Source of the DNA: Synergistaceae bacterium | Lineage (GTDB): Bacteria; Synergistota; Synergistia; Synergistales; Aminithiophilaceae | Reading direction: 5' to 3' | DNA length: 64,000 nt | Assembly: GCA_016756725.1 (NCBI GenBank) | Contig: JAESII010000005.1 | Span: 78,996-142,995, forward strand | Part shown: piece after piece, positions 6,600 to 47,693 of the stretch | How the letters are laid out: every line of letters begins with the position of its first letter | Position numbering within the stretch: the stretch's first letter is position 1 | Translations under genes and position numbers: made by a program | The notes under the pieces: model-generated | The model's database searches: none | Told to the model about the DNA's origin: nothing | What the model saw: only the letters and a program-made list of their open reading frames with translations

Positions 6600-6628
6600 T
6601 TGTATGACTTCCGGTTCAGGAGTACGAT
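6600..6628 (+). promoter_or_regulatory. Sigma70-type promoter of the RiPP operon
   Basis: TTGTAT-17 bp-TACGAT about 80 bp upstream of the precursor ATG; RBS GGGAGG near 6692. Confidence 0.6.
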
Positions 6629-6706
6629 GAAAAATGTCCTCCGGCAGGATCCCGCCGTAACCGTCCGTTCCGCAGGATTCAGAAAGAAGATGGGAGGGGT
6701 CTCCCC

Positions 6707-6997
6707 ATGTCCGTCGAGAGCGCCCAGGATTTTCTGGACAAGGTCAAAAGCGATGACGCGTTCCGCCAGGCCCTTGAGCAGGCCGCCAGTGATGAAGCCC
6801 GCAAGAAGCTCGTCGCCGAGTCCGGATTCGATTTCACCAAGGAAGAGCTGAAGGAAGCCGCCGGCGTTACCGGCGGTCCTCAGAAGATCGACGAGAAGGA
6901 TCTTGAAGCCGTGGCCGGCGGCGGCGCAGCCGCCTGGGTCAGCGCCACGGGATCGGCCGCCGCCGGAGCCATCGGCGCCGCCGCCGCCGCCATCTAG
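6707..6997 (+). CDS. Nif11-like leader RiPP precursor (72-aa leader, 24-aa core)
   Basis: MSVESAQDFLDKVKSD..FR..L....GFDFTKEELK...DLEAVAGG matches Nif11-type leaders with a double-Gly cleavage site; core GAAAWVSATGSAAAGAIGAAAAAI at 6923-6994; first gene of the operon. Confidence 0.92.
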   Translation: MSVESAQDFLDKVKSDDAFRQALEQAASDEARKKLVAESGFDFTKEELKEAAGVTGGPQKIDEKDLEAVAGGGAAAWVSATGSAAAGAIGAAAAAI

Positions 6998-7087
6998 GTT
7001 TCCGCTCCGAAACAGCTGCCCTGCCGGGGGGCTTCTCGTGTTCACGATTCCGATGACATCCCGAAGGACCCTAAAGCGAGGTATCTC

Positions 7088-8338
7088 ATGGACACCCTTA
7101 CCGTTCCTGTCCTTTTCCGCGGCCAGAGTCACCGCTCCGCCAAGGTCTGCCTGGCCGGCGCGAGGCGGTCCCGGTCTCCCGAGGAGACATACGGAGCCGT
7201 TCGCCCTCTCATGGAGACCATCGGAGCCACCCGTGTCGCCGACATCACCGGCGTCGATCGGATCGGCATTCCCGTCGCGGCCGTCGTTCGCCCCCTCGCT
7301 CCCATTCAGGTCTACTCCTGGGGTAAGGGGACGACGCTCCTTCAGGCCAAGATCTCGGCCATGATGGAGGCCCTCGAACGGCACGGCGGCGAAAGAGCCG
7401 ACCCACCCTCGGTCCGCCTGCCCTATGACGCCCTTGAGGGGCCCAGGATCGCCCTGGAGGACCTGCCCCTCAAGAAGGACCATCTCTTCTCACCCCGTCT
7501 TCCGGAGCGCTGGACGGCAGGCTGGGACCTGATGACGGGCGAGGAGGTCTACGCTCCCCTCCAGCTCGTGCGCCTCTCCTTCCGCCGCGATCTGCCCGGC
7601 GAGACCGAGTCCTTCCAATGCACCTCCAACGGCCTCTCGGCGGGCAACAGCTTCGTCGAGGCCCTCTGTTCGGGGCTCTACGAATGCATCGAACGTGACG
7701 CCGTGACCTGCTGGGAGCTTCATAACCGCTCCCGGGGGCTGACCCTGCCGGGGCGGGTTGTCGACGCCGACGGCATCGACAACCCCGATCTGGCCGACCT
7801 CATCGCCCGCTGCCGCCGGGCCGACGTGGAGGTCCTTTTCCTGGACTGCACGGCCGACACGGCCGTCCCCACCTATGTCTGTTACCTCCAGGACCGGATT
7901 CATCCCCACTGGGGGCTCTATCACGGCAGGGGCACCCATCTCAACCCCCATATCGCCCTGAGTCGGGCCCTCACCGAGGCGGCCCAGGGACGGGCGGCCT
8001 ACCTCCTCGGCGGCCATGACGGCGCCTCCCTGGAGACCCAGGGAACGGTGGCCTTCGGGACGGGTGTCTCCCTGACCCTGAGGGCACAAGCCCTCGAGAA
8101 GGCACCCGCTCCCGGCGCGGACGAGGAATGTGACACCTTCGAGGAGGACGTCCACCTCATCCTGAACAGGCTGGCCCGGGTGGGCATCGGTCGGGCCCTG
8201 GTCTGGGACCTGACGGACCCGGACCTTGCCGTTCCCGTCATCCGCCTTGTCGTGCCCGGCCTCGAGGGATGGCGGATGCACCACTATGCCCCGGGCCGAC
8301 GGGGCCGCGCCTGCGCTGAAGGGGGGTGGAAACCGTGA
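7088..8338 (+). CDS. ycaO: YcaO-family enzyme (TfuA-associated, thioamide-forming type)
   Basis: GKG...AKISAMMEALER; TSNGLSAGN..EA..SGLYECIERDA ATP-binding motif; RALTEAAQ; C-terminal VVPGLE; adjacent to TfuA. Confidence 0.92.
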   Translation: MDTLTVPVLFRGQSHRSAKVCLAGARRSRSPEETYGAVRPLMETIGATRVADITGVDRIGIPVAAVVRPLAPIQVYSWGKGTTLLQAKISAMMEALERHGGERADPPSVRLPYDALEGPRIALEDLPLKKDHLFSPRLPERWTAGWDLMTGEEVYAPLQLVRLSFRRDLPGETESFQCTSNGLSAGNSFVEALCSGLYECIERDAVTCWELHNRSRGLTLPGRVVDADGIDNPDLADLIARCRRADVEVLFLDCTADTAVPTYVCYLQDRIHPHWGLYHGRGTHLNPHIALSRALTEAAQGRAAYLLGGHDGASLETQGTVAFGTGVSLTLRAQALEKAPAPGADEECDTFEEDVHLILNRLARVGIGRALVWDLTDPDLAVPVIRLVVPGLEGWRMHHYAPGRRGRACAEGGWKP

Positions 8339-9702
8339 CGGTCGCCGTCTTTCTCGGGCCCTCCCTGCCCCTGGAGAAGGCCCGGGAGCTTCTTGATGCC
8401 CGCTATCTCCCGCCTGCCCGTCACGGCGACGTGCTCCGCCTCGTCCGGGAGGGGGCCGTCGAGGCCATCGTCCTCATCGACGGAGCCGAGTTCGGCACCG
8501 GCCCCCTGGTCTGGCACAAGGAGATCCTGGCCGCCCTCGACAGGGGGATCGCCGTCTTCGGCGCCGCCGGGTCCGGGGCGGTCCGCGCCGCCGAGCTGGC
8601 CCGATGGGGCATGAGGGGGTTCGGCGAGGTTTACCGCCTCTACAGCGAGGAGGTGCTCGACGGCGACGATGCCGTGGCCTCTCCGTCGCTCTTTCAAAAC
8701 GGACGGTGGCGCCGTCTGGCCGAACCTTTCGTCAATGTCCGGGCCACCGTCGAGAAGGCCCGACGGGAGGGCCTTCTCGACGAGAACGAAGAGGAGCTCC
8801 TCCTTGCGTCGGCTGGAGCCCTCTTCTACCGGGACCGCACCGTCGAGGCGATCCTGGATCGGGCCGTCGCCTCCGGCGCCATGGCCGGAGAGAGGGCCCG
8901 GACGGTCGAAGGGCTGCTCCGCGACGGTTATGTCGACGTCCAGGCCCGCGACGCCGAAGCGCTCCTGGGCCATCTGGCCCGCCAGGGTCTGGGCGAAAGG
9001 CCCGAGGGGCCTCCCTCGACGGAATGGAAGGAATCTCACGTTTTCCGCCGCCTCGTCGAGGAGGAGCGCCAGGAATCGGTCGGTTCCGTTACGCTGAGGA
9101 CAGGCGAAATCGCCGCCTGGGGGGCCCTGGCCCGGCCCGAGGGTTTCGAGGCGGCCCGGCGCGGGCTGAACCGCTTTCTCGGCCTCGAGCTGGCCCGTCA
9201 GAGAGATCTTCGCGTCACCGACGACGAGATTGACCTGGAGGCGACCCGCTTCAGGCGGAGAAAGGGCCTCGCCGACGAGGCCGCCTTCCGCCGGTGGCTC
9301 GGGGCGAACCACCTCGACGACGAGGGCTACCGACGCCTCATGGAGGACGAGGCGACGCTGAGCCGCCTCCGTCACTGGCTCTTCGTGACGGAGCGCTTCG
9401 GCACGCCCGTGAGGGCCCTCCTCGACGAGATGCGCCTCGAGGGGACCTACGAGGCCACGGCGGCCGAAGCGGCCCGGGCCTACGACCTCTTTCGGACCCT
9501 CTGCGGCGATCTCCGCGAGGAGGCGGCCGATCTGGGAAGCCGCGAGGACTTCTTCGCCGCCTATGTCCAGGCCCATCTCCTTCCCCGGATGGACCGCAGC
9601 TTCCTGGCCTGGTGCGAGGAGATGGGCATCGACAGGGGCCGCGCCCTTTTGCACGCCCTCGTCCGCGAGGGGCTCCGCCGCTTTTGCGACGGTCTGGGCT
9701 AA
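8335..9702 (+). CDS. tfuA: TfuA-like protein with long C-terminal extension
   Basis: VFLGPSL, PPARHGD, LIDG, VWHKEIL, RAAEL..WGMRGFGEVY; GTGA overlap with ycaO stop (alternative start 8326). Confidence 0.88.
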   Translation: MTVAVFLGPSLPLEKARELLDARYLPPARHGDVLRLVREGAVEAIVLIDGAEFGTGPLVWHKEILAALDRGIAVFGAAGSGAVRAAELARWGMRGFGEVYRLYSEEVLDGDDAVASPSLFQNGRWRRLAEPFVNVRATVEKARREGLLDENEEELLLASAGALFYRDRTVEAILDRAVASGAMAGERARTVEGLLRDGYVDVQARDAEALLGHLARQGLGERPEGPPSTEWKESHVFRRLVEEERQESVGSVTLRTGEIAAWGALARPEGFEAARRGLNRFLGLELARQRDLRVTDDEIDLEATRFRRRKGLADEAAFRRWLGANHLDDEGYRRLMEDEATLSRLRHWLFVTERFGTPVRALLDEMRLEGTYEATAAEAARAYDLFRTLCGDLREEAADLGSREDFFAAYVQAHLLPRMDRSFLAWCEEMGIDRGRALLHALVREGLRRFCDGLG

Positions 9703-9713
9703 GAGGGCTGACC

Positions 9714-11186
9714 GTGCCTTCGCGGCCTGAGGTCGTCCGTCTTGTCGGCACCAACCGGGCCCTGACGGCTCAGGTCTTCGAGGAGAACTTTCGTTTCGCC
9801 CTCGGCGGTTCGCTGTCCCTTCGCACCGCCTCGGTCCCGATGGACCCCAAGGAAAATCCGGCCTTTTTCGACGCCGGTGACTTCTTCGCTCCCAACTACG
9901 AGATCCAGCCTCTCGTTCCCTGGCTTCTTGCCCGCCGCGAGGCCCTCGGGAAGGCCCAGCGCCTTCTTTTCGTCGCCCACGCCCCGGGAGGCATGGCCTG
10001 GGTCTGGCGCCTCCTGGCGCCTCTGCTGAGGCCCGGGGACCGCATCGTCGCCCCCAGTCCGCATGCCGCCTCGGTCATCGCCTGGCTCGAGCCGTCGCTG
10101 GAGCCCTTCGTCCGCGTCATCGGCCACCCCATCCCCGGCCCGACCGGGGATGACCTTTCCGGTGAACCCGCCTTCCTCTACCTGGGGCGGATCAGGCCGG
10201 AAAAGTGCCTTCACCAGCTCATCGACGGCTACGCCCTCTTCAGGAGCCGCCGACCCGGTCCGCCTTTGATCATCGCCGGCCCCCTTCACGATGACGACGA
10301 CGGCCGTCCCCTCTCCTACGTGATGGCCCTCAGGCGCCGGGCCGCCCGCCTCGGCCTGGAGAGCTCGGTTCTCTTTCCCGGTCCCCTGAGGGGAAGAATG
10401 AAGGAGGCGGCCCTGGCCGGGGCCCTGGGGCTCTGTAATCTCTCTCTCTCCCTGGAGGAGTCCTTCGGGAAGGCTCCCGCCGAGGGCCTCGTCCGGGGCC
10501 TGCCCGTCCTGGCCACGACGTGGAGCGCCTTTCCGGAGATGCTCCGGTCCCGGGGCGTCTTCGTCCCCTGCCGGAAAGGAGCGGGGAGCCGGACCGTCGA
10601 TGCCGGCGAGATCGCATCGGGTCTGGAGGCCCTCCTGGATCGGGGCCGTCTCGACCCGCTTCGTGATGGGGCCAACCCCTACGCTCCGGCTGCCGTCGGC
10701 GGCGCCTACGAAAAGCTCCTGACCGAGGCCCTTGAGGAGAGCAGCCTAAGGGCCCCTTCAGGCCGTCTCGGGGCCCTTGACAGGGTTGCTCCCCTCTGTG
10801 GCCTGTCCTGGGAGGAGCTCTTCGGCTTTCACCGCGACGAATGTTCGCGCAGGCTGAAGCGGATGGCCGGTAAAGAGGCGGCCGCCTACGGGCGGGCCGA
10901 GAGGATCCAGGGCATTCTGGCCCTCTCCCTTCAGGAGGATCTGACGGCCCTTTTCGCCCACGATGGCGTCGTCTTCTCGGGACAGAACCTCTCCCTGCCC
11001 CTCGACGGGACGGAAAGTCCCCTCCTTCGTGGAGCGGCACGGGGTGAAGCCAGTCTGGCCTCCCGTCTTGCCTCCGTGGCGGCTCTCGCCGAAGAGGGGG
11101 AGGTCGCCGAGGGGCGCCGTCTCCTGGAGGCCCTGCCCGAGGGGGGGGTGTCCTTCGCGCCTTTGCCGCCGTCCGTCTGGCCCTGA
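9714..11186 (+). CDS. GT-B (GT4-like) glycosyltransferase, 5' part; frameshifted at G8 tract 11141-11148
   Basis: YLGRIRPEK and ESFGKAPAEGL..GLPVLAT...FPEML GT4 motifs; GTG start 9714 inferred. Confidence 0.78.
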   Translation: MPSRPEVVRLVGTNRALTAQVFEENFRFALGGSLSLRTASVPMDPKENPAFFDAGDFFAPNYEIQPLVPWLLARREALGKAQRLLFVAHAPGGMAWVWRLLAPLLRPGDRIVAPSPHAASVIAWLEPSLEPFVRVIGHPIPGPTGDDLSGEPAFLYLGRIRPEKCLHQLIDGYALFRSRRPGPPLIIAGPLHDDDDGRPLSYVMALRRRAARLGLESSVLFPGPLRGRMKEAALAGALGLCNLSLSLEESFGKAPAEGLVRGLPVLATTWSAFPEMLRSRGVFVPCRKGAGSRTVDAGEIASGLEALLDRGRLDPLRDGANPYAPAAVGGAYEKLLTEALEESSLRAPSGRLGALDRVAPLCGLSWEELFGFHRDECSRRLKRMAGKEAAAYGRAERIQGILALSLQEDLTALFAHDGVVFSGQNLSLPLDGTESPLLRGAARGEASLASRLASVAALAEEGEVAEGRRLLEALPEGGVSFAPLPPSVWP

Positions 11187-11524
11187 AGGAGGGCGACGCA
11201 GGCGGAGCCCTCCGGGCCTGGGCGGCCAGGCCCGGAGTCTGGTCCGAGAAAGAGGAGGGAGGGGCCTGGCTCCGCATGGGCGCTGAAATCGCCCGCTTCG
11301 GCGGATCTCCCGCGGCCCGGGCCGTTCTTCCTGTCCTGAAGGACTGGTGCCGTCGTTTCCCCGACGGGCCCGAGACGGGGGCCGTGGCCCTGGGCTGGTG
11401 TCTGGCGGCCCTGGCCGGCGACGTCGCCGAGGAAGGCCGGGAGGCCCTGAACCTGGCCCGAGCCCTCCTGCCCGAGGGAGAGCTGCTCCGCCGTCTCGAT
11501 TCCGTCCTTTTGGGGGTGTGCTGA
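11147..11524 (+). pseudogene. C-terminal helical (TPR-like) continuation of the glycosyltransferase in the shifted frame
   Basis: Open frame from 11147 (GVLRAFAAVRLALKEGDAGGALRAW...) joins ORF 11276-11524; adding one G to the G8 tract gives a single 603-aa ORF 9714-11524. Confidence 0.65.
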
Positions 11525-13140
11525 AAACGGGAACGCTGCTGCTCTGCCATCTGCCCTTTGCTCCGGCCACGCCGCCTCATCTGGCCCTGCCCGTCCTCGC
11601 CGGTTACCTCCGGTCACGGGGATGGCCGGTACGCTGCTGGGACGGCAACAACGCCTTTGTCCACCGAGTCGGCCGACCGGAGGCCGTCGCCGCTGGCCGG
11701 GAGCGTCTGGCAGCCCTTCGCGGCCGTCCCGAGAGGCCGGCCTGGGCGGACCGGACCGAGGCGGTCCTCGCCCGCCTGGGAGACCGCGTCGCCTGCCTCG
11801 ACCGCCCCGAGGTCTTCGTCTCGGCCCGGGAGCGGAACCTGGCCCTCGAGGCCGTCCTCGACCTGGCCTCGCTGGGAAAGAGGGAGCGGGTCCTCTTTGA
11901 CCGGGTCAGCAACGGTCTCGGCCTCCTTTCGCCGTCGTCGCCCTACTCGCTGAAGGCCTCCCTCGAGGCGGCTTCCGCCTTCGATCTCCTGGAGGGCTTT
12001 TTCGAGGACGAGCTCCTGCCTCTGGCCGACGGCACCGTCTCCGTCGCGGGCCTTTCCGTCTCCTTCGCCGAGCAGTTCCAGCCAGCCCTCCGGGCGGCGA
12101 GGGTCCTGAAGGCCGCGAGGCCGGAGTTGCCCGTCTACCTGGGCGGCTCCTTCGTCTCCTATCATCTGCGGGACGTCGGCGACAGCCTTTTCGACCTCGT
12201 TGACGGCGTCGTCATCGGTGACGGCGAGAGGGCCCTCGAGGAGATCCTGCGCCGGGAGGAGGGCGGCAGCCGGGGGGAGCCCGCCATCGCCGGCCTGGTG
12301 ACGCGGACCAGGCCCTTTGAGGGACCCGCTCAGGCCCCCCCTTTGACAGAGCTTCCCGATCCCGATTTCTCCGACTTTCCGCCGCGGCGCTACTTTTTCC
12401 CCGAGGGCCGGGCCATCCTTCCCCTGCGTTTTTCCCGGGGCTGCTGGTGGAACCGCTGCGCCTTCTGCCGCGGTTACAGCGGCACCTACGACCGGGCCGA
12501 GCCGTCCTTCCTCGTCGACCAGCTCCTGCGCCTTGCCGGCCGGACCCGGGCGCGGTCCTTCATCCTCTCCGACGCCTGCCTCTTGCCGGAAGTCCTCTAC
12601 GGTTTCGCCCAGCTTTTGACGGAACGGGGCTCTTCCTTCCTCTGGAACGCCCACTTCCGCTTTCACCCCTCGTTGACGCTGGAGAAGATCGTCCTTCTCC
12701 GGCAGGCCGGGTGCAGCCGCCTCTTCCTGGGCCTCGAAGCCTTCTCGGACCGCCTGCTGACGCTGATGGACAAGGGGATCACGACGGAGCTGATCGACCG
12801 CAACCTCCGCGACCTGGCCTGGGCGGGGATGGACGTTTTCCTCTACGTCATCGTCGGTTTCCCCACCGAGACGGAGGAGGAGGCCCGCGAGGGCTTCCGG
12901 CGACTGAAGAGACATCTCGACGAGGGTCTTTCGGCGACGGTCCAGTTCAACCCCTTCATCCTCTTTCCCGATTCTCCCGTCGGGAGGGCCCCAGAGAAGT
13001 ACGGCATCGGGGAGGTCCTTTGCGACGAGAGAGAGGATCTCCTCGCCCCGGCCCGATCCTATCGGGGGCCGGGGATGACGCCTTCCCGAGCCGTCGAACT
13101 GGCCGGGGAGTTCTCCCGCGTCCTGTCGTCATCATCGTGA
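11518..13140 (+). CDS. B12-binding radical SAM enzyme 1 (putative RiPP methyltransferase)
   Basis: N-terminal cobalamin-binding-type fold (PHLALPVLAGYL, GLSV.F..Q, GG, GDGE), RGCWWNRCAFC, GLE, IVGFPTET; start overlaps the previous stop. Confidence 0.85.
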   Translation: MLKTGTLLLCHLPFAPATPPHLALPVLAGYLRSRGWPVRCWDGNNAFVHRVGRPEAVAAGRERLAALRGRPERPAWADRTEAVLARLGDRVACLDRPEVFVSARERNLALEAVLDLASLGKRERVLFDRVSNGLGLLSPSSPYSLKASLEAASAFDLLEGFFEDELLPLADGTVSVAGLSVSFAEQFQPALRAARVLKAARPELPVYLGGSFVSYHLRDVGDSLFDLVDGVVIGDGERALEEILRREEGGSRGEPAIAGLVTRTRPFEGPAQAPPLTELPDPDFSDFPPRRYFFPEGRAILPLRFSRGCWWNRCAFCRGYSGTYDRAEPSFLVDQLLRLAGRTRARSFILSDACLLPEVLYGFAQLLTERGSSFLWNAHFRFHPSLTLEKIVLLRQAGCSRLFLGLEAFSDRLLTLMDKGITTELIDRNLRDLAWAGMDVFLYVIVGFPTETEEEAREGFRRLKRHLDEGLSATVQFNPFILFPDSPVGRAPEKYGIGEVLCDEREDLLAPARSYRGPGMTPSRAVELAGEFSRVLSSSS

Positions 13141-13166: not shown

Positions 13167-15041
13167 ATGTTGTCCCCGTCTCGGGGCGATCTTCAGGGCA
13201 TCACCCTGATCATCCCCCCCATCAGCGCTCCGACCCGGCCCTACCCGAGTGTCCCCCAATTGGCCGGGTATCTCCGCCGCAAGGGAATTCCCGTGAGGGC
13301 CCTTGACGCCAACATCGCCTTCTGCCGCCACTTCCTCCGCGGCGAGAGACTGGACGAAGGGATCGCCTACGGACTGGACCGGCTCCGGACCCTGGACGGC
13401 CAGGACAGCCTGGCTTATGCCGAGATGGTCGAATATCTCTCCCTGGCCCGGGCCGGAGCCATCGTCGATCACTTCGGGCCGGAGCGCTTCCGGGCCTACA
13501 TCGAGAGGCGCGAGGCCATGCCCCGAGAGCTGCAGGGCAAGATTCTCGACGTCGCCTCCCGACTGATTCTGGCCTCCCACTTTCCCGAGTCGATCCGTCA
13601 CAACGACGAGGACATGCAGTTCGCCGGCCGGGGCAACCCCTATTCGAGCGCCTACCTCCTCGAGGCGTCCCGGGAGGAGGGTCTTTTCGGCTCCTTCTTC
13701 GAGACCTGGCTCGCCCCCCTGCTGCGCTCTGAGAGGCCTCTCATCGCCGGCCTTTCCGTCGTCTTTCCCGGCCATATCGTGCCGGCTCTGCGCATCGCCC
13801 GGGCCATCCGCAGGCTCTCGCCCTCGACGGCCATCGTCTTCGGCGGTCCCTTCGTCATGTTCCATCTCTCCCGGGCCCCCCAGGACAGTTTTTTCGACCT
13901 TATCGACTACATGATCGCCGGCGACGGCGAGGTGCCCCTGGCGGCCCTCTACGAGGCGCTCCGTCAGGGCTCGCGGGATCTCTCCTCCGTTCCGGGGCTC
14001 ATCTACCGCGAGGGGGGGCTGAGGCGATCCAACCCCGAAGGGCCCCACCTTCCCATGGACGAGGCCTGCACCGACTACAGCGACTTTCCCCTCGGGGACT
14101 ACTACCGTCACCCCAAGGATCCCTTCGCCTTCTTCCGCCTCTCCCGGGGCTGCTCCTGGGCGCGCTGCGCCTTCTGCCGGACCGAGACGCCGCTCATCTC
14201 CTGCTACCAGGAGGGCGATCCTGACCGCCTCTTCGAGCAGGTCCGAAGGCAGGTCGAGGAAAGAGGGACGGTCTTTTTCCCCTTCACCGACGACGAGGCC
14301 TCACCGGAGCGGGTCGAGGCCTTCGCCCGGCGCGTCATCGATGAAAAGCTCCCCATCGAATGGTCCATCAACATGCGCATGGACAGCCGCGTCACCCTGG
14401 AGAGGTGCCGCCTCTTCCGCGAGGCGGGCTGCATCAACCTCATCATGGGCCTCGAGAGTTTCCATGACCGGCTGCTGAAGCTCATCGCCAAGGGGATCAC
14501 CGTCCCTCTCATCGAGCGGGTCCTCTCCAACGTCTCCTGGTCGGGCCTGCGGGCGGGCATCTACATGATTGTCGGCCTGCCGACGGAGACCGTCGACGAG
14601 GCCGAGGAGTCCTTCCGACGCATCTTCGCCTACTGCCGCGACGGCGACGTGAGCTATGTCTTCTACTCGCCCTATCAGGTCCTGAGCGACTCGCCCATCG
14701 GCCGTGATCCCCGCCGCTACGGCATCACCGACCTCAACGTGCCCGAGACTCTCGACCTGGACCCGCCCAACGTCTGGTTCCGGGGCGAGGGGATGACGCG
14801 GATCGACTCCTTCTCCCTCATGCAGCGCTACAGCTGGGCCATCTGGAGGGCTCTCGGCAAGAGGACGCCGCCGGCCCTGACGAGTCTCCGTCTCGGCGGT
14901 GAGGAGGTCGTCTTTCACTACGATCTCGGCGAGATGGCCCGGAAAATCAGCGAGAACGTCGAACCCTATCTGGCCTTTGGCGAATACCTCGAAAACGGAA
15001 GAAGGGCCGCTCTCGGACTGGCGCGGAGGGCGACGCCGTGA
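13167..15041 (+). CDS. B12-binding radical SAM enzyme 2
   Basis: RBS AAGGAGG before ATG 13167; PQLAGYL, GLSV, GDGE, SRGCSWARCAFC, GLES, IVGLPTET. Confidence 0.87.
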   Translation: MLSPSRGDLQGITLIIPPISAPTRPYPSVPQLAGYLRRKGIPVRALDANIAFCRHFLRGERLDEGIAYGLDRLRTLDGQDSLAYAEMVEYLSLARAGAIVDHFGPERFRAYIERREAMPRELQGKILDVASRLILASHFPESIRHNDEDMQFAGRGNPYSSAYLLEASREEGLFGSFFETWLAPLLRSERPLIAGLSVVFPGHIVPALRIARAIRRLSPSTAIVFGGPFVMFHLSRAPQDSFFDLIDYMIAGDGEVPLAALYEALRQGSRDLSSVPGLIYREGGLRRSNPEGPHLPMDEACTDYSDFPLGDYYRHPKDPFAFFRLSRGCSWARCAFCRTETPLISCYQEGDPDRLFEQVRRQVEERGTVFFPFTDDEASPERVEAFARRVIDEKLPIEWSINMRMDSRVTLERCRLFREAGCINLIMGLESFHDRLLKLIAKGITVPLIERVLSNVSWSGLRAGIYMIVGLPTETVDEAEESFRRIFAYCRDGDVSYVFYSPYQVLSDSPIGRDPRRYGITDLNVPETLDLDPPNVWFRGEGMTRIDSFSLMQRYSWAIWRALGKRTPPALTSLRLGGEEVVFHYDLGEMARKISENVEPYLAFGEYLENGRRAALGLARRATP

Positions 15042-16864
15042 CGGAGGAGATCCTCCTTCTGGGACCGCCCTGCGATGGGCCTTACGGTCCGGCGGCGGCC
15101 CTGCCTCAGCTCGCGGGCCATCTCCGGAGGCAGGGCCTGCCGGTGCGGGCCGTTGACGCCAACGCCGCCTTCTTCCGCCATCACTTCACGGACCGGGCCC
15201 TCCCGGGCGGCCTTGAGCGCGGGGCGGACCGTCTCGAGGCCCTGGCGTCCCGGAAGAGTCTCTCCTTCGGCGCGATGATGGAATACCTCGCACTCGCCAA
15301 GGCGGCTCTCGTCCTCCGGCGGGGAGGGCCCGAGCTGGTGGCCCGCGCCCTCGATCGGGACAGAAAGATGGCTGGATCCCTGAGGAGCCTCCTTTTCGAG
15401 AGCCTTTCCAGGTTCATCGATGGCGGAACCTTCCCGGAGAGCCTCTGGAACGTGGGGGAGGCCATCTTCTACGAAGGGGGGAGCCCCTACGGAACCGATT
15501 CCGTCCTTGAGGGGGTTTCGGGGCCCAGCCTCTTCGGCGATTTCTTCGAAACCTTCGTCGACGGCCTCACCCTTTCCCGGCCCAGGCTGGCGGGAATATC
15601 CGTCACCTATGCCAGCCAGGCCATGGCGGCCTTCCGCCTGGCCAGGGCGCTGAAAGGACGCTTTCCCGGCCTTTTCGTCGTCCTCGGCGGGGCCTTCGTC
15701 ACCCTCCACCTGAGCCGGACGGAGCGGACCGATTTTTTCCGCCTCGTCGACGGCCTGGCCGTCGGTGACGGTGAGAGGACGCTGGAAAAGGCCTATGCCG
15801 TCCTCGGCGCCCGAGGGGACCTGGCCACGGTGCCGGGCCTCGTCTTCGTCCGCCGGGGAGAGCTCGTCCGGGTACCTCCCGCGCCGCCGACGCCGCTGGA
15901 AGCGACCGGTCCCGAATGGAGCGATTTCCCCGAAGAGGATTATTATCGTGACGGGAGCGGCGATGTGACCGGTTTCCGCCTCTCCCGGGGCTGTTCCTGG
16001 GCGCGCTGCGCCTTCTGCCGGACCGAAGAGGCCTTCATCGCCCACCGCGACCGGGTTGACCGGGCCCATTTCGCCCGTCTCAAGGAGCTCCTGGGAGAAG
16101 GAGGGCGTTCCGTCGCCTTCGGCGACGACGAGGCCGACGCCGATCTCCTCGAGGCCTTTTCCCGATGGGTACTCGACGAGGGACTCTCCTTCGGCTGGAC
16201 CGTCAACGCCCGGATCGGCCCGGGCCTCACCCTGGAGCGGTGCCGCCTTTTCCGTCGGGCCGGCTGCAGGCGGCTCGTCGTCGGCATCGAAAGTCTCGAC
16301 GACGCCCTCCTGGCTCTGATGCGCAAGGGGACGACGGTCTCTCTCATCGAGAGGACCCTCTCCAACCTGGCCTGGGCGGGCCTGCCCGTGGGGGCCTACA
16401 TGATCGCCGGTTTTCCGACGGAGACGGAAAACCGGGCCCGCCGTTCCTTTGAGAGAATCGGCCGCCTCCGCGACGAGGGGCTGGTGAGTTCCGTCTTCTA
16501 TTCGGCCTTTCAGATTGCCCCCGGTTCGGCCGTGGCCGAAAGGCCGGAAGACTTCGGCATCACGGCGATCCGTTACCCTTGCGGGGCCGATCTGAACCCT
16601 CCGGCCGTCGATTTCGAGGGACCGGGGATGAGCCGGCAAAGGGCCTTCGCCCTCTGCCAGGACTTCGGGGCCTCTTTCCAGAGACGGACCCCGCCTGAGG
16701 AGGGGGTGCCGGAGAGCGTCGTCGTGGGTGCGAGGAGGATCAGGCTGACCTTCCCCCTTGATGAAGTGGCCGGGGCGATCCGACGCTTTGCCCCGCCCCA
16801 TCTGGATTTTTTCGGCTATATCGAAAGGGGAGAGGCGATCTGTCCGCCCCTGAAGCGCCCCTGA
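15038..16864 (+). CDS. B12-binding radical SAM enzyme 3
   Basis: PQLAGHL, GISV, GDGE, SRGCSWARCAFC, GIES, IAGFPTET; GTGA overlap with the previous gene. Confidence 0.87.
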   Translation: MTEEILLLGPPCDGPYGPAAALPQLAGHLRRQGLPVRAVDANAAFFRHHFTDRALPGGLERGADRLEALASRKSLSFGAMMEYLALAKAALVLRRGGPELVARALDRDRKMAGSLRSLLFESLSRFIDGGTFPESLWNVGEAIFYEGGSPYGTDSVLEGVSGPSLFGDFFETFVDGLTLSRPRLAGISVTYASQAMAAFRLARALKGRFPGLFVVLGGAFVTLHLSRTERTDFFRLVDGLAVGDGERTLEKAYAVLGARGDLATVPGLVFVRRGELVRVPPAPPTPLEATGPEWSDFPEEDYYRDGSGDVTGFRLSRGCSWARCAFCRTEEAFIAHRDRVDRAHFARLKELLGEGGRSVAFGDDEADADLLEAFSRWVLDEGLSFGWTVNARIGPGLTLERCRLFRRAGCRRLVVGIESLDDALLALMRKGTTVSLIERTLSNLAWAGLPVGAYMIAGFPTETENRARRSFERIGRLRDEGLVSSVFYSAFQIAPGSAVAERPEDFGITAIRYPCGADLNPPAVDFEGPGMSRQRAFALCQDFGASFQRRTPPEEGVPESVVVGARRIRLTFPLDEVAGAIRRFAPPHLDFFGYIERGEAICPPLKRP

Positions 16865-16931
16865 CGGCGTCCCCTTCCGGGGAAGGCCGTCGTCGGAGGG
16901 CCGTGAAGGCGAACCGAGGGAGGTGAAGGAG

Positions 16932-18224
16932 ATGGCTCATGAGACGAAGCTCTTTCGCAAGAAGGCTCTGGACCGGCTCTCGTCGCCGGAGCAGATGGAC
17001 CGGACGATGTCCTTCGTCGGTCCCCGGGCCTGGATCCTGCTGCTGGCCTCCCTGGTCCTGATGGGAGGGCTCCTCTTCTGGGGCTTTTTCGGCTCCCTGT
17101 CGACGAAGGTCACCGGGGCCGGAATCCTGCTCGGCATGGGGGAGGTCGTCGAAGTGAGTCCCCGCGAGGGGGGCCGCGTCCTGAGCCTGGCCTCGGGGCT
17201 GAACCGGTATGTTCAGAAGGGGACCATCCTGGCCGAGATCGATCAGATCGCGATGGAGCAGCAGCTCGAAGAGGCCGAGCGGGAACTGGAGGATCTGAGA
17301 AACCAGCTCCTCCGGGCCGAACAGAGCGAGGCCTCGAGAAAGCGCTACGAATCGGACTACACCGAAAGCCAGCGCCGGACCCTCCAGACCTCCATCCTTT
17401 CCGCCAGGGACCGGGCCCGAAGACTCGAGGAGATGGAGAAGAAATATCGCGGCCTCTACGAGCGCCAGCTCGTGACGGAGGGGGAGTACCTCGACGTCCG
17501 TGACCGCTACGACCAGGCTGTCCAGGACATCCTCCGCTACGAGGAAAACCTGGCCAAGCTGCCCGTCGCCACCGTCGAGTCCCGCACCCAGTGGGAGAGG
17601 GAGCAGCGCGACCTGGCCTACCAGATCGTCCAGATGGAGGAGCGCGTCCGCCAGTACGCGACGAAGCTGGAGGAAAACAAAAGCCTCGTCAGCCCCGTTT
17701 CGGGGTTCGTCATCGGCGTCTACAAGAACACGGGCGAGATGGTCGCCGCCGGCGAGACGGTTTACGTCATCGAGGAGGCCGGCCCGGCCCAGAGCGGGAG
17801 CGAGGCGGAGCTCTTCGCCCAGGTCTACGTGCCCACGGCCCAGGGCAAGAAGGTCCGTCCCGAGATGGAAGCCCTCGTGACGCCGACGGTCGTGAAGCGC
17901 GAAGAGTACGGCTCGATCCGGGGCCGCGTCCTTTTCGTCTCCGACGCTCCCGTCTCGCGGAAGACGATGCTCCGTTTCCTGGGCAACGAGGACCTGGTCG
18001 ACCAGCTCTCCCGTGACGGATCGCCCATCGGCGTCTACGTGGAGCTCCTCGATTCGGACGAGACCGAAAGCGGCTACGTCTGGACCTCGGGGAAGGGTCC
18101 GTCGATCACGATCGACCGCAATTCGGTCTGTTCTGTCGAGATCGTGACGCGCCGCCAGAAGCCGATCACCCTCGTTCTGCCCTTCCTCCGGAAATGCCTT
18201 CTCGGCGTCGGAGAGGGACAATGA
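16932..18224 (+). CDS. NHLP/Nif11 bacteriocin secretion membrane-fusion protein (HlyD family)
   Basis: LFRKKALDRLSSPEQMD N-terminus, coiled coil, 'GKKVRP.M...V.P..VKREEYGSI.G.V', 'SGYVWTSGKGP'. Confidence 0.92.
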   Translation: MAHETKLFRKKALDRLSSPEQMDRTMSFVGPRAWILLLASLVLMGGLLFWGFFGSLSTKVTGAGILLGMGEVVEVSPREGGRVLSLASGLNRYVQKGTILAEIDQIAMEQQLEEAERELEDLRNQLLRAEQSEASRKRYESDYTESQRRTLQTSILSARDRARRLEEMEKKYRGLYERQLVTEGEYLDVRDRYDQAVQDILRYEENLAKLPVATVESRTQWEREQRDLAYQIVQMEERVRQYATKLEENKSLVSPVSGFVIGVYKNTGEMVAAGETVYVIEEAGPAQSGSEAELFAQVYVPTAQGKKVRPEMEALVTPTVVKREEYGSIRGRVLFVSDAPVSRKTMLRFLGNEDLVDQLSRDGSPIGVYVELLDSDETESGYVWTSGKGPSITIDRNSVCSVEIVTRRQKPITLVLPFLRKCLLGVGEGQ

Positions 18225-20428
18225 GAACTTTCAGGAAATCTCCGGCTCCCCTTCGGTGGTCCTCAGGCCGGGGGCGGGTGAAGACGCCGACCCTGCTTCA
18301 GATGGAGGCAACCGAGTGCGGTGCCGCCGCCCTGGGGATCGTCCTCGGTTACTACCGGCGCTTCGTCCCCCTCGAGAAGCTCCGCGAGGAGTGTGGCATC
18401 ACCCGCGACGGCAGCAAGGCGAACAACGTCCTTCGGGCCGCACGGCGCCACGGGATGGAGGCCGAAGGCTTCCGCGTGGAGACCGAGGATCTGCCTCAGC
18501 TTCCTTTGCCCCTGATCCTCTTCTGGAAGTTCAACCATTTCCTCGTCCTCGAGGGAATGAAGGGGTCCAAGGTCTTTCTCAACGATCCCGCCGCCGGGCC
18601 CGTCGTCGTCGACCGTGAGAGCTTCGACCGCGACTTCACCGGCGTGGTCCTTTCCCTCGTTCCAGGCCCCGACTTCGTGGCCCAGGGGAGCCCCAAAAGG
18701 CCCTGGCAGGCCCTGGGCCAGCGTCTCAAGTCGGTCTGGACGATGCTCCTTTTCGCCGTCGTCGCCGGCCTGGGGCTGGTCATTCCCGGCCTGCTGGTGC
18801 CGGGGCTCTATCAGGTCTTTCTCGACGAGATCCTCGTCTCTTTCCAGCCGGGCTACTTCAAGCCGCTGCTGCTCTTTCTCCTCGCCCTGGGGCTGACCCA
18901 GGGGGTGCTGACGCTGCTTCAGCAGCATGCCCTGCTCCGGCAGGAGATGGCCCTGGCCGTGGGCCAGTCGCTGCGCTTTTTTCTCCACGTCCTGCGTCTG
19001 CCCTATGCCTTCTTCGTCCAGCGCTTCAGCGGCGAGGTGGGCAACCGGGTGGCCCTGAACGACCAGATCGCCACGACCCTCTCCCGCCAGCTGGCGACGA
19101 CGGTGCTGAGCTGCTCGACGCTGGTCTTCTTCTTCGTCGTCATGGTCGGCTATTCGCCGACGATCGCCCTCATCGGCGTCGGCGCCGCCCTGGCCAACGT
19201 GGCTCTCCTCCTGTCCGTCAACCGGCGCCGGGCCGACCTGAACGAGCGGATTCTCGCCGACCGGGGCAAGTTCACGGGCATCGCCATGAGCGGCCTTCAG
19301 CTCATCGAGACCATCAAGGCCACGGGGGGCGAGGACGATCAGTTCGCCCGCATCGCCGGGCACCTGACCAAGTCGAAGCGTGGCCAGATCGAGATGGGCT
19401 TTTTCAATACCCTCATCGAGCCCGTCCCCTCTCTTCTGGCCTCCCTCGTCGCTGCCACCCTCCTCTGTCTCGGCGGCCTCCAGGTCATGGAGGGCGTCCT
19501 CACCCTGGGCATGCTTCTGGCCCTGCAGACGCTGATGACGAATTTCCTCAATCCCGTGGGCCAGCTCGTCGACCTGAGCGCCACCTTCCAGACCGTCCAG
19601 GGGACGCTGAACCGTCTCGAAGACGTGCTGCGCTATCCCGCCGACTCGTCCTGGCAGCCCCGGGAGGAGGACGGCCGCGAGAGGGACCCGAAGGCCGCCG
19701 TTCCCTTCCGCCTCACCGGTCGGCTCGAGCTGCGGGGCCTCACCTTCGGCTATTCCCGCCTCGACGCGCCGCTGATCGAGGACTTCTCCCTCACCTTGAG
19801 GCCGGGAGCGAGGATCGCCCTCGTCGGCGGTTCGGGATCGGGCAAGTCGACGATCGCCAAACTCGTCTGCGGCCTCTTCGAACCCTGGTCGGGGGAGGTT
19901 CGCTTCGACGGCATTCCCCTGAGGGAGATCGACCGGGAGAGACTGGCCCGGTCCTTCTCCTTCGTCGATCAGGACATCGTCCTCTACGAGGGAACGGTCC
20001 GGGAGAACCTCACCCTCTGGCGCGAGGGGATTCCCGAGGCGTGGCTCGTCGAGGCCTGCCGCGACGCGGCCATCCACGACGAGATCGCCGCCCGGCCCAA
20101 GGGATACGACTCCCTCGTCGAGGAGAACGGCCGCAACTTCAGCGGCGGCCAGAGACAGCGCCTCGAGATCGCCCGGGCCCTCGTCATGGGGCCTTCGCTG
20201 CTCGTCATGGACGAGGCGACGAGCGCCCTCGATACCCAGACGGAACGTCTCGTCGACGCCGGACTGAGACGCCGCGGCTGTTCCTGCCTCATCGTGGCCC
20301 ACCGGCTCTCGACGATCCGCGACAGCGACGAAATCATCGTCCTCGACCACGGCAAGGTCGTCGAACGGGGCGACCACGAATCGCTCATGGCTCTCTGCGG
20401 CCGCTACCGGTCGCTCATCGAGAACTGA
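18221..20428 (+). CDS. NHLP-family ABC exporter with C39 peptidase domain (leader removal)
   Basis: TPTLLQMEATECGAAAL (catalytic Cys), WKFNHFLV (His), GGSGSGKST, FSGGQRQR. Confidence 0.93.
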   Translation: MRTFRKSPAPLRWSSGRGRVKTPTLLQMEATECGAAALGIVLGYYRRFVPLEKLREECGITRDGSKANNVLRAARRHGMEAEGFRVETEDLPQLPLPLILFWKFNHFLVLEGMKGSKVFLNDPAAGPVVVDRESFDRDFTGVVLSLVPGPDFVAQGSPKRPWQALGQRLKSVWTMLLFAVVAGLGLVIPGLLVPGLYQVFLDEILVSFQPGYFKPLLLFLLALGLTQGVLTLLQQHALLRQEMALAVGQSLRFFLHVLRLPYAFFVQRFSGEVGNRVALNDQIATTLSRQLATTVLSCSTLVFFFVVMVGYSPTIALIGVGAALANVALLLSVNRRRADLNERILADRGKFTGIAMSGLQLIETIKATGGEDDQFARIAGHLTKSKRGQIEMGFFNTLIEPVPSLLASLVAATLLCLGGLQVMEGVLTLGMLLALQTLMTNFLNPVGQLVDLSATFQTVQGTLNRLEDVLRYPADSSWQPREEDGRERDPKAAVPFRLTGRLELRGLTFGYSRLDAPLIEDFSLTLRPGARIALVGGSGSGKSTIAKLVCGLFEPWSGEVRFDGIPLREIDRERLARSFSFVDQDIVLYEGTVRENLTLWREGIPEAWLVEACRDAAIHDEIAARPKGYDSLVEENGRNFSGGQRQRLEIARALVMGPSLLVMDEATSALDTQTERLVDAGLRRRGCSCLIVAHRLSTIRDSDEIIVLDHGKVVERGDHESLMALCGRYRSLIEN

Positions 20429-20443
20429 GGGGAGGGGAGGATC

Positions 20444-23350
20444 ATGGACAGCCGGCTCGAATCGCTCACGTCCCGCGGCACGGAATGGACCCTTCTCTCC
20501 CGCCTGGGGGAGCCTCTGGGAGGAAGACAGCCCTTTCTCGTCGTCGTCGAGGGCATCGTCGACGTCCGGGGCGTCGTCCTCTCCGACGACAGGCCCTGGG
20601 GACCGCGGGAACCGCTCCTTTCTCTTGCCGCCGGGGACGTCCTCTGGGACGTCGACGGAATGATCGCGGGCTACGGCCTGGAGCTGACGGCCCGGGACAG
20701 GGCCCGCCTCGTGGCGGTCCCCTGGGCGGTCCTCGAAAAGTGGGCCTCCGATCCCGAGCGGCGCCAGACCCTTCTTGCCCTGGCCGAGAACTTCCTGGGC
20801 CGTTTCGCCGCGACGCTGAGCCGCAAGGCCACTCCCGGTTCTGCGCCGGTGAAGGCTCCCGAAGAGGGAGAACACTCCTTTGAGGCCGGCGAGCTGCTGG
20901 CTTCTCCCGAGGGGGCCCCCTGGGCCTCTCCGGTCGGGGGCGAGCTCCTTCTTCTGGGCACCGAATCGCCCGGTGAGGGCCCCTTTTTCGCCGGGGCCGG
21001 CCTCTGGCTTCGGACCCTCTCGGAAGGGGCCGTCCAGTGGCTTCCGGCCTCGGAAATCGCAAGACAGATCCCTCTCGGGGAGCTGCTCCGGCGAAGCCTG
21101 GCTCTCTTCTGGCGTCTCGCCTCCGTCGAGGCCCGCCTCGATCTGGCCGATCAGTGGAACGTCTCCCGTACCATGGCCGCCCTCGGCCGGGAGCGTTTCA
21201 AGGGAGCCCTGGCCAATCTCGGGACCATCCTCTCCCGGGGCGAGGAACGCAAGGCGGCCCCGGCCGAGACGCCCTGGCTCAAGATCGGCGCCCGCCTCGG
21301 CGAAGCGATGGGCTTCAGCCTGCCCCGGGATCTGCAGAATCCCCAGGAGATCACCTCAGCCGAGGACCTGGGCCGTGCCCTGAGCCTGAGGGTCCGCAAG
21401 GTGGCCCTCGAAAAGGGCTGGTGGCGCAAGGAGGGTCTGCCCCTCATCGCCTTTGCCGGCGACGACGAGCCCCTGGCCCTCATTCCCCGAGGACGGCGCT
21501 ATCACCTCTACAGGCCCGGCGACGGCTCGGAGGCTCCCGTCACAGCCGTCGAGGCCGCGGCGATCGCCGAAGAGGCCTTCGCCGTCTACCGCCCCCTGCC
21601 GGCGGGCAGCCTGAAGAAAGGGGACCTCTTCTCCTTCGGTCTTTTCCGTTCCGGCGGCGAACTCCTCTTGGCCTTCGTCGTCGCCGTCGTCATGGGCGGC
21701 CTGGGCCTTCTCGTGCCCGTCATCAACGGCAAGGTCTTCCAGGACCTCATCCCCGCCGCGGAGCGGGGCGAGATCGTCGATACCTTCCTGATCCTCGTCG
21801 CCCTCGCTCTGACGACGGCGCTGCTCCGGCTCTTTCAGCAGCTCTCCCTCTTCCGCGTCGAGAGCCGCATGGACCACGATCTGGAGACGGCCCTCTGGGA
21901 CCGGCTGCTGCGGCTGAAGGCGACCTTCTTCCGTCGCTACTCGGCCGGCGACCTGGCCAACCGCGCCTTCGGTCTCTACTCGGTCCATCAGTACATGAGC
22001 CAGTCGGCCCGCACGGTGGTCACCAGCTTCGTCTTTTCTCTGCTCTATCTGGCCCAGATGTTCTATTACGACTGGAAGGTCGCCCTCGCCGCCGCGGCCT
22101 GTCTGGCCTGTCTCGGCGCGGCCATGGCCCTGGCCGGCCTGGTGCAGATCCGTTACCAGCGGAAGATGGTGGCCCTCCAGAACCGGCTGAGCGGCATGGT
22201 CCTCCAGATCCTGTCGGGACTGAACAAGATCCGCGTCGCCGCCGCCGAAGAGCCCGCCTTCGCCCGGTGGGCCAACCTCTTCGGCTCCCAGCGGCTCTGC
22301 AACTACCGGTCCGGCCGGGCCGTGGCCATCCTCAGCGGCTTCGCCTCGGCCTTTCCCGCCCTCTGTGCCGTCATCATCTTTCTTGTCATCATGTACGGCC
22401 GCGTCGGCTATCCCGACGAGATGGGCCAGGCCTACGACCTGGGTCGCTTCGTCAGCTTCTGGTCCGCCTACGGCGCCATGCAGGGCGCCTTCCTGAGTCT
22501 CGTCTCGACGGTGATGACCCTCTTCGCCGTCCTCCCCCTCTACGAGGCGCTCTCCCCCGTTCTCGACGAGGAGCCCGAGGTGGGCGACCTCAAAGCCGAT
22601 CCCGGCCTTCTCCGGGGCAAGATCGATCTCTCCTCCGTCACCTTCCGCTACGACAGGGAGGCGCCCATCCTCTTCCAGAACCTCTCCCTGTCGGTGAAGC
22701 CCGGCGAGTTCCTGGCCCTTGTCGGTCCCTCGGGATCGGGCAAGTCGACGATCATCCGCCTCCTTTTGGGCTTCGAGTTTCCCGAAAGGGGCGACGTCTT
22801 CTACGACGACAAGCCGCTGAAGGACATGGACCTCCGCAAGGTCCGCTCCCAGATCGGCGTCGTCCTTCAGCAGGGGGGGGTCATCGCCGGCGACCTTTTC
22901 TCCAACATCGTCTGTTCCCGGCCCCTCTCGATCGACCAGGCCTGGGAGGCGGCCCGCATCGCCGGCCTCGACGAGGATATCAAGGCCATGCCCATGGGCA
23001 TGCACACGATGATCACCGAAGGGGCCAACACCCTCTCGGGCGGTCAGCGGCAGCGGCTGGCCATCGCCAGGGCTGTCGTGGCCAGGCCGTCGATCCTGCT
23101 TTTCGACGAGGCCACATCGGCCCTGGACAACCGCACTCAGGACGAAGTCTCCCGCAGTCTGGAACAGCTCCAGGCGACGCGGATCGTCGTGGCCCACCGC
23201 CTCTCGACGATCCGCAACGCCGACCGCATCGCCGTCATCGCCGGCGGCGCCGTGGCCGAAGAGGGGACCTTCGACGAGCTGATGGAACGGCGGGGGCTCT
23301 TCTACGAGCTCAGTCTCCGCCAGATGACGGGAGAGGAGGCACGATCGTGA
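20444..23350 (+). CDS. NHLP-family second ABC transporter (inactive peptidase-like domain, degenerate N-terminal regulatory domains)
   Basis: 'RVRKVALEKGWWR...PL', WDRLLRL..FFRRYSAGDL, GPSGSGKST, LSGGQRQR. Confidence 0.9.
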   Translation: MDSRLESLTSRGTEWTLLSRLGEPLGGRQPFLVVVEGIVDVRGVVLSDDRPWGPREPLLSLAAGDVLWDVDGMIAGYGLELTARDRARLVAVPWAVLEKWASDPERRQTLLALAENFLGRFAATLSRKATPGSAPVKAPEEGEHSFEAGELLASPEGAPWASPVGGELLLLGTESPGEGPFFAGAGLWLRTLSEGAVQWLPASEIARQIPLGELLRRSLALFWRLASVEARLDLADQWNVSRTMAALGRERFKGALANLGTILSRGEERKAAPAETPWLKIGARLGEAMGFSLPRDLQNPQEITSAEDLGRALSLRVRKVALEKGWWRKEGLPLIAFAGDDEPLALIPRGRRYHLYRPGDGSEAPVTAVEAAAIAEEAFAVYRPLPAGSLKKGDLFSFGLFRSGGELLLAFVVAVVMGGLGLLVPVINGKVFQDLIPAAERGEIVDTFLILVALALTTALLRLFQQLSLFRVESRMDHDLETALWDRLLRLKATFFRRYSAGDLANRAFGLYSVHQYMSQSARTVVTSFVFSLLYLAQMFYYDWKVALAAAACLACLGAAMALAGLVQIRYQRKMVALQNRLSGMVLQILSGLNKIRVAAAEEPAFARWANLFGSQRLCNYRSGRAVAILSGFASAFPALCAVIIFLVIMYGRVGYPDEMGQAYDLGRFVSFWSAYGAMQGAFLSLVSTVMTLFAVLPLYEALSPVLDEEPEVGDLKADPGLLRGKIDLSSVTFRYDREAPILFQNLSLSVKPGEFLALVGPSGSGKSTIIRLLLGFEFPERGDVFYDDKPLKDMDLRKVRSQIGVVLQQGGVIAGDLFSNIVCSRPLSIDQAWEAARIAGLDEDIKAMPMGMHTMITEGANTLSGGQRQRLAIARAVVARPSILLFDEATSALDNRTQDEVSRSLEQLQATRIVVAHRLSTIRNADRIAVIAGGAVAEEGTFDELMERRGLFYELSLRQMTGEEARS

Positions 23351-31394: not shown

Positions 31395-31504
31395 AGAAAG
31401 GACGAAACGGGGTGTCGTGCCGGCCCGAGGCACGGCTGCCTTCGGGCAGGGCGGGCCCGCCCTGCCCCTGTTTTCCCAGAACGCTGCTCCCCAGGAGGAT
31501 GACG

Positions 31505-37397: not shown

Positions 37398-37423
37398 GCC
37401 CTATAATGGCCTCGGAGGACGCC

Positions 37424-46231: not shown

Positions 46232-46293
46232 TTTAATATTAAATTTTAATATTTTTTTCTTGTAATTTTGATGGATAAGCTGAAAAATTTCAT

Positions 46294-47631: not shown

Positions 47632-47693
47632 TGCTATGTCCTCCGTTTCTTGTTGGAGTGCCTGCTTTTTATTCACTGGCAGTTTCTGGCGGC

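Follow-up and report, generated by a model that had tools for sequence, protein, structure and literature searches.

A 13-gene YcaO-TfuA cluster with a single Nif11-leader precursor in the Synergistota, a probable thioamide peptide pathway of the Tha-1 type

The precursor gene and its operon

The window analysed here is a stretch of 64,000 nucleotides from an anaerobic bacterium of the Synergistota. Aminiphilus and Synergistaceae are the names borne by relatives in its order, and the window GT4 aligns with an Aminithiophilus ramosus protein at statistics identical to those for the same-genus genome G002. An open reading frame on its forward strand (6707-6997) translates into a protein of 96 residues, in which a leader ending in LEAVAGG is followed by a core of 24 residues. 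This precursor gene heads an operon of 13 genes; the twelve that follow lie on the same strand, with junctions that overlap or are short. The locus comprises the following features:

6600..6628, forward: promoter-like site (-35 TTGTAT, 17 nt, -10 TACGAT), read by eye
6636..6648, forward: 5' arm of a putative RNA helix, located just after the promoter-like site where transcription is predicted to start (centroid fold, shuffles, covariation)
6707..6922, forward: Nif11 leader, 72 residues, double-Gly end (PF07862 and TIGR03798, both above cut-off)
6923..6997, forward: core of 24 residues and stop, with the codon of the invariant Trp5 (6935-6937) and an Ala tract at the C-terminus
7020..7032, forward: 3' arm of the putative helix, 23 nt past the precursor stop
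7088..8338, forward: YcaO, predicted thioamide type (PF02624)
8326..9702, forward: TfuA (PF07812) with an extra C-terminal region of ~240 residues, partly SurA-like
9714..11524, forward: GT4 glycosyltransferase of a 600-680-residue subfamily, frameshifted in this assembly
11518..13140, forward: B12-dependent radical SAM enzyme 1, CX4CX2C
13167..15041, forward: B12-dependent radical SAM enzyme 2, CX4CX2C
15038..16864, forward: B12-dependent radical SAM enzyme 3, CX4CX2C
16923..24651, forward: NHLM-type export module of HlyD, C39-peptidase ABC, second ABC and TolC-like proteins (TIGR03794, TIGR03796 and TIGR03797 above cut-off; OEP)
24648..25751, forward: ThiF-family adenylyltransferase whose N-terminal peptide-binding region is MccB/PaaA-like
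25748..26548, forward: alpha/beta-hydrolase with Ser-Asp-His motifs

The leader scores well above the cut-offs of both Nif11 models (55.3 bits against 23.8 for PF07862, and 66.9 against 32.3 for TIGR03798), bearing out the leader type proposed in an initial annotation of this DNA, and together with the double-Gly site and the linked C39/NHLM exporter this places the protein among the Nif11-leader RiPP precursors. Two competing frames were rejected, one on the opposite strand that is open over 97 codons and has no start, and an overlapping one of 95 residues from 6564; the HMM match and the conserved homologues belong only to the forward frame from 6707. The initial annotation had also spoken of a single precursor. 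In the genome that holds the window (G000, 83% complete) it is indeed the sole Nif11 protein above cut-off, and a motif scan found no second double-Gly precursor there that could act in trans.

The core is made up of 13 Ala, four Gly, two Ser, two Ile and one each of Trp, Val and Thr (GRAVY 1.33; monoisotopic mass, unmodified, 1956.006). As originally described, it has neither Cys nor charged residues, hence no cationic ones, and carries a single Trp and the hydroxyl residues S7, T9 and S11. It ends in Ile after a poly-Ala stretch, and the C-terminus is its only carboxyl group. Across the homologues of equal length (14/14), the core averages 79% identity to the window protein and the leader 72%; this conservation of the core rules out a low-complexity accident. 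The C39 peptidase has its Cys and His motifs, and the exporter would likely cut after the double Gly and secrete the 24-mer. No immunity gene is evident at the cluster, nor does it hold an epimerase.

The two arms flanking the precursor gene would form a stem of 13 bp, which was matched by 10 of 500 shuffles. Stems of 13-19 bp are present in seven Synergistota loci (the window, L016, L024, L025, L026, L050 and L051), six of them at no more than 10 of 500 shuffles and one weakly (64 of 500); no such helix was seen in nine precursors of other lineages. In the helix alignment 94% of 101 cells are paired, as against 41-60% when the arms are slid, and 5 of 15 pairs are changed on both sides, a covariation result that is inflated, given that the structure was drawn from these same related sequences. 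Support comes only from the contiguous-stem and pair tests: the whole-region MFE z-score is -0.4, the whole-flank duplex test mostly failed to reach significance, and the one Rfam match is at chance level (E 0.75). The A and T columns of the -10 element are invariant in all seven aligned loci, and a promoter scan returned 0 sites, the candidate being too far from its consensus. Contigs from RNA libraries of two studies (6650-6892 and 6652-7016, one with adapter sequence at 6650) lie inside the helix, which hints weakly at a discrete precursor RNA, since contigs can show neither ends nor levels. Contig depths in the RNA runs are 301 and 100 for the precursor and 4-14 for the other listed pieces, figures from which genes cannot be ranked. 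We suggest that the helix probably stabilises or releases an abundant precursor mRNA.

Precursors at 70-84% identity occur in 4 of 60 relatives, and in all four close relatives fetched, other members of the Synergistota, the 13 genes stand in identical order. The distribution is patchy: the other genome of the same genus (99% complete) gave no precursor match. Related clusters were found in Desulfovibrionaceae (with GT4 and three radical SAM enzymes; a ThiF of the cluster type was not found), in Desulfocapsa (including ThiF and the hydrolase), in Desulfatiglans (precursor and enzymes split over two contigs of one genome) and in Ca. Vecturithrix. When used as a search query, the long TfuA turned up in 16 of 268 Synergistota genomes and in 2 of 401 genomes of the phylum Desulfobacterota. 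The cluster has a GC content of 66-71%, compared with ~63% for the contig, and this composition gives no clear sign of recent transfer.

Core comparison and the glycosyltransferase

The initial annotation had noted that a GGG run makes the cleavage register ambiguous by one residue, which is true of the precursor taken alone but is settled by its homologues. In each of the 26 precursor-type proteins listed, Trp falls precisely on position +5 counted from the double Gly, while position +1 varies, being Ser or Asn in 9 of these 26 and Lys, Thr or Arg in further loci. We therefore infer that the core begins at the third Gly. The same comparison narrows two other statements. Uncharged is a fitting description of the window core, but close homologues have Asp4 and others Glu4, Lys1 or Arg1; positions 1-4 are variable and may be charged, and it is from position 6 onward that the nine GT4-linked cores are free of charge. 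Likewise, the lack of Cys is a property of the window core and does not define the family, the cores of the Tha-1 system (see below) ending in Cys-Gly-Trp.

Cores were sorted by the genes visible in the fetched stretch, leaving aside 35 HMM hits in which the site or the core was unclear, and an Ala tail was defined as three or more Ala among the last six residues. All nine cores with YcaO and GT4 have such a tail, as do 44 of the 52 with YcaO and TfuA only, three of the four in loci at contig ends, and 3 of the 78 in stretches without YcaO. The tail thus accompanies YcaO-TfuA in 53 of 61 cases, versus 3 of 78 where the fetched stretch has no YcaO, and each of these three belongs to a genome that has a cluster of this kind close by or on a different contig.

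Trp5 follows a different gene. It is present in 9/9 cores with YcaO and GT4, in 1/52 with YcaO and TfuA only, in 4/4 at contig ends and in 9/78 with no YcaO seen; the four at contig ends stand in loci where the break leaves no GT4 visible. A GT4 orthologue was found in 5 of 268 Synergistota genomes, precisely the five that hold a Trp5 cluster, and in four of the five outside genomes, the fifth (G064) being the one whose core lacks Trp, in a draft assembly whose contig stops within the cluster. This correlation should be interpreted with caution, as the combined Trp5 and GT4 label requires only two changes on the YcaO and TfuA trees and may reflect shared ancestry; the GT4-linked cores were, moreover, collected through similarity to the query precursor. 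Searches starting from GT4 gave no new clusters: sets of 201 and 151 genomes each yielded the centre genome alone, and a set of 87 yielded nothing. A plasmid search gave no match.

With E-values limited to 1e-30, the GT4 subfamily comprises 90 representatives, and a PDB search with its profile returned generic GT-B enzymes only. Trp5 is common to all GT4-linked cores and no Ser/Thr column is, which makes Trp the better candidate for the glycosylation site. By analogy with NAI-112, a RiPP with an N-glycosylated Trp according to the available text of PMC10373908, GT4 may attach a sugar to the Trp5 nitrogen, a tentative proposal to which we give slightly less than even chances. The initial annotation had favoured Ser/Thr as sugar sites. 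Such an O-linkage, with Trp5 serving for recognition or activity, is the less probable, though possible, arrangement: all nine GT4-linked cores have at least one Ser/Thr, S7 and T9 are retained in most Synergistota cores, and O-linked RiPPs are commoner than N-linked ones in the literature available to us, but no Ser/Thr column extends across lineages as the invariant Trp5 does, and Ser/Thr are also frequent in sister clusters that lack GT4. An enzyme that N-glycosylates Trp, if that is what this GT4 does, would be rare, with NAI-112 as the sole RiPP precedent in the accessible part of that source.

In the window the GT4 gene is frameshifted in a run of eight G (11141-11148), with two reading frames around the run and the last ~125 residues cut off; close homologues are unbroken at 603-641 residues. 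Contigs of four other studies carry one extra G (G9) in the run, and the sequencing run possibly behind the window DNA does not show it, a combination that looks like a strain allele, possibly produced by slippage, rather than a plain assembly error. The change may switch glycosylation off in this strain.

Probable thioamidation, methylation and C-terminal activation

The count of about eight tailoring genes given in the initial annotation stands, comprising YcaO, TfuA, GT4, three B12-dependent radical SAM enzymes, ThiF and the alpha/beta-hydrolase; so does the absence of lanthionine and thiazole machinery, none of which is among the 13 genes. The YcaO protein scores 203 bits with TIGR03266 and 128 with the SagD-type model, both below cut-off. 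Its best PDB sequence match is the methanogen YcaO MJ1094, which is nearer than TruD/LynD, and the C-terminal PxP is absent. The TfuA gene overlaps that of YcaO, and the TfuA model matches the solved structure 6xp8 with a Z score of 28. With adjacent YcaO and TfuA beside the precursor and a YcaO of non-azoline type, the cluster is, by its gene content, a thioamitide cluster in the broad sense. Thioamidation, which had been named as a suitable chemistry for this backbone, is consistent with the methanogen-like YcaO and its TfuA neighbour, and by analogy the pair would very probably thioamidate the precursor backbone; that the site lies within the Ala/Gly tail is a reading we favour with less assurance. 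YcaO could instead work with ThiF as an E1 partner and convert Ser/Thr to oxazolines, giving a linear azoline peptide. The three Ser/Thr of the core and the presence of both a YcaO and a ThiF-fold protein in the cluster would allow this, but TfuA adjoins and overlaps YcaO, there is neither a PxP tail nor a dehydrogenase, YcaO is nearer the methanogen enzyme than TruD/LynD, and the related Tha-1 system yielded a thioamide in the work described in PMC9576775; we regard azoline formation as highly improbable.

The extra C-terminal region of TfuA shows weak matches to SurA_N_3 and TIGR04500. In the predicted structure, residues 270-357 match SurA and trigger factor with a Z score of 7.1, which is close to background, a Foldseek search with the extension (modelled within the full protein) gave no match, and in the Atlas the TfuA cluster alone was matched (0.76). 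The modelled likeness to SurA raises the idea, which we put forward with some reserve, that this region could hold the hydrophobic substrate.

All three radical SAM enzymes have a B12-binding domain. Their best-scoring family is TIGR03975, that of the RiPP B12-dependent radical SAM C-methyltransferases, at 76-130 bits against a cut-off of 282, and they carry CX4CX2C in place of CX3CX2C, as do all cluster homologues checked. Given these features, methylation is assigned by family likeness only; C-methylation of the peptide by at least one of the three appears likely.

The ThiF-family protein had played no part in the interpretation of the initial annotation. Its best PDB sequence match is MccB (1.6e-31), ahead of MoeB (2e-24); in sequence and predicted fold it matches MccB and PaaA over the full length (~360 columns), and its ATP motifs are intact. 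It resembles MccB, PaaA, GrcB and IndF in joining a peptide-binding domain to an active ThiF domain, as outlined in the accessible text of PMC12596934, and by analogy it probably acts on the peptide C-terminus, activating the carboxyl group. None of the outcomes described there for these four enzymes fits directly, since the core has no C-terminal Asn, Glu, Cys or nearby Trp. The nucleophile could be a Ser/Thr hydroxyl, an amine or a sulfide, and the acyl group may be passed on or trimmed by the hydrolase.

GrcB and IndF are the ThiF enzymes credited with ring formation in the available part of PMC12596934, and IndF forms a Trp-Ile indolylamide (section 3.5). With its one Trp and Ile end, the window core could in principle be closed in the same way, from the C-terminal Ile to the indole nitrogen of Trp5, as a 20-residue ring; the distance from Trp to the end, however, is 3 in IndA, 19 here and 11 to 24 across the homologues, and G061 keeps Trp5 while a cluster-type ThiF was not found there with this query, making such a ring improbable. 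ThiF might also leave the peptide untouched and activate a ThiS-type carrier that supplies sulfur for TfuA. ThiS and ThiF-rhodanese genes adjoin Trp5 precursors in L063, thioamitide YcaO-TfuA pairs at times work with ThiF/ThiS according to the literature available to us, ThiS-family genes lie elsewhere in G000, and the other ThiF/MoeB match of that genome holds two TGA stops. Such a role in sulfur relay is nonetheless unlikely: the protein has the MccB/PaaA N-terminal domain that is absent from MoeB and ThiF, scanning 15 cluster stretches for a ThiS pattern gave no convincing candidate, and the minimal YcaO-TfuA clusters do without such a ThiF.

Relation to known systems and the proposed pathway

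Among known systems, the nearest is the Tha-1 cluster from Desulforegula conservatrix (described by Ayikpoe et al., 2022, in PMC9576775), for which the accessible text reports one thioamide by MS in E. coli, at a site that was not located, and no detectable modification, neither sugar nor methyl, by its glycosyltransferase and radical SAM enzyme in that host. Common to both are a Nif11-type leader with AGG at its end, an Ala/Gly/Val-rich core with Trp at +5, and genes for a precursor, YcaO, TfuA, a glycosyltransferase and a radical SAM methyltransferase. In the same source, Tha-1 has two precursors ending in Cys-Gly-Trp, one listed radical SAM enzyme, and ThiS/ThiF accessions that lie far from the cluster's own, whereas the present cluster has one Cys-free precursor, three radical SAM enzymes, and an MccB-like ThiF and an alpha/beta-hydrolase within it. 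With Trp at +5, an Ala/Gly-rich core and YcaO, TfuA, GT and radical SAM genes, it falls into the Tha-1 subgroup by core and gene set. The reading of the whole that we hold with good, if not the highest, confidence is a thioamide peptide pathway of the Tha-1 type with a single Nif11-leader precursor. The genome survey of Malit et al. (2021; PMC8120280) presents Nif11-like GG precursors beside YcaO-TfuA and names GT4, MoeB and dedicated transporters in its Figure 4 legend and text; the Synergistota are not mentioned in its main text or in one supplementary text file, and these parts hold no analysis of Trp5 or Ala-tail cores. In the open-access literature, this type of cluster appeared only in that survey and in the Tha-1 work, and the Synergistota clusters, the link between Trp5 and GT4 and the RNA helix were not found described.

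Peptides of the thioviridamide type, with thiostreptamide S4 as the example accessible to us, also carry several YcaO-TfuA thioamides in a linear Ala-containing tail; they differ in needing an AviMeCys ring made from Cys, together with dehydratases and His methylation, all absent here, as well as in leader and export. The window core has no Cys, and genes for an AviCys decarboxylase or dehydratase are not among the 13. Proteusins such as polytheonamide combine a long double-Gly leader of the NHLP type with a hydrophobic core of small residues, B12-dependent radical SAM C-methyltransferases and a radical SAM epimerase. In the present cluster only Nif11 models match the leader, three radical SAM enzymes with B12 domains stand beside YcaO-TfuA, and neither an NHLP leader nor a radical SAM epimerase was found. 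An MccB-like enzyme is shared with the microcin C type, but the core ends in Ile in place of Asn, and there is neither an azoline-type YcaO with a dehydrogenase, as in LAPs, nor a Lan dehydratase/cyclase with Cys, as in lanthipeptides. Judged by its genes and core, the cluster is therefore not of the thioviridamide, proteusin, LAP, lanthipeptide or microcin C type.

We suggest the following order of events. On the leader-bound peptide, YcaO and TfuA would replace oxygen by sulfur in backbone amides, probably in the Ala-rich tail; the three radical SAM enzymes would add C-methyl groups, GT4 would possibly add a sugar at Trp5, and the MccB-like ThiF would activate the C-terminal carboxyl group, with cleavage by the C39 peptidase and export to follow. 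In thiostreptamide S4, thioamides in an Ala-containing tail protect from proteolysis (bioRxiv 10.1101/2020.12.17.423248, in the part available). The likeliest role for the product, to which we would assign even chances, is that of a secreted, protease-resistant antagonistic peptide. The membrane-active peptide that the initial annotation suggested on the grounds of hydrophobicity would be a speculative alternative for a core free of cationic residues in a cluster that lacks an epimerase. That the product represents a new RiPP class, namely a linear poly-Ala peptide with thioamides, several C-methyl groups, a GT4-made Trp N-glycoside, a ThiF-made C-terminal closure, a SurA-like substrate-binding module on TfuA and a phase-variable sugar switch in the G run, is doubtful as a combination. 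The cluster itself is real and conserved, and more heavily tailored than the one partly tested member of the Tha-1 group. It is a good natural-product lead, having a single precursor, a simple core and a relative in the same genus whose genome is complete, and the comparison yields predictions at the level of residues: sugar at Trp5, sulfur in the Ala tail, and activation of the sole carboxyl group.

Two predicted thioamide-peptide systems are present among Synergistota from digesters and oil fields. The second, a minimal sister system that came to light in the search with the long TfuA (L100-L116; e.g., G015:C1:111975-120613, G054:C51 and G507:C33), consists of YcaO, the long TfuA and an NHLM exporter accompanied by as many as ~11 Nif11 precursors, which are hypervariable and hydrophobic and have poly-Ala ends or, in some cases, Pro-rich cores instead; three genomes contain both the GT4 type and the minimal type. 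Other variants were seen in related loci. An APS-kinase gene lies between the radical SAM genes in the Vecturithrix (L034:16816-17352) and Desulfatiglans (L097:6689-7213) clusters, and a PP-loop protein follows ThiF in the latter (L097:10702-11823); sulfur supply or extra tailoring are possible roles. Locus L063 (478-2717 and 2923-7877) combines two Trp5 precursors and two YcaO matches with a divergent sulfur relay of ThiS and ThiF-rhodanese. At L030:6420-12180 and L042:548-4654, two or three CX4CX2C B12-dependent radical SAM enzymes of the same kind come directly after Nif11 precursors whose cores are rich in Ala and lack Trp, with no YcaO in the fetched stretch, which would fit a methylation-only variant.

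Further observations concern the genome and the remainder of the window. The ThiF/MoeB match at G000:C7:29565-30224, with its two TGA codons, is a broken gene or an assembly error. A segment at 46001-48000 has a GC content of 44%, against ~64% around it, and is possibly a foreign insert. A flagellin of 1975 residues (31412-37339, forward) contains a very large insert and matches a flagellinolysin (HExxH) model weakly near its C-terminus. Finally, a protein of 1030 residues (37406-40498, forward), 11 kb from the cluster, shows weak matches to TOMM kinase/cyclase and AfsR-type regulator models and is a possible regulator.
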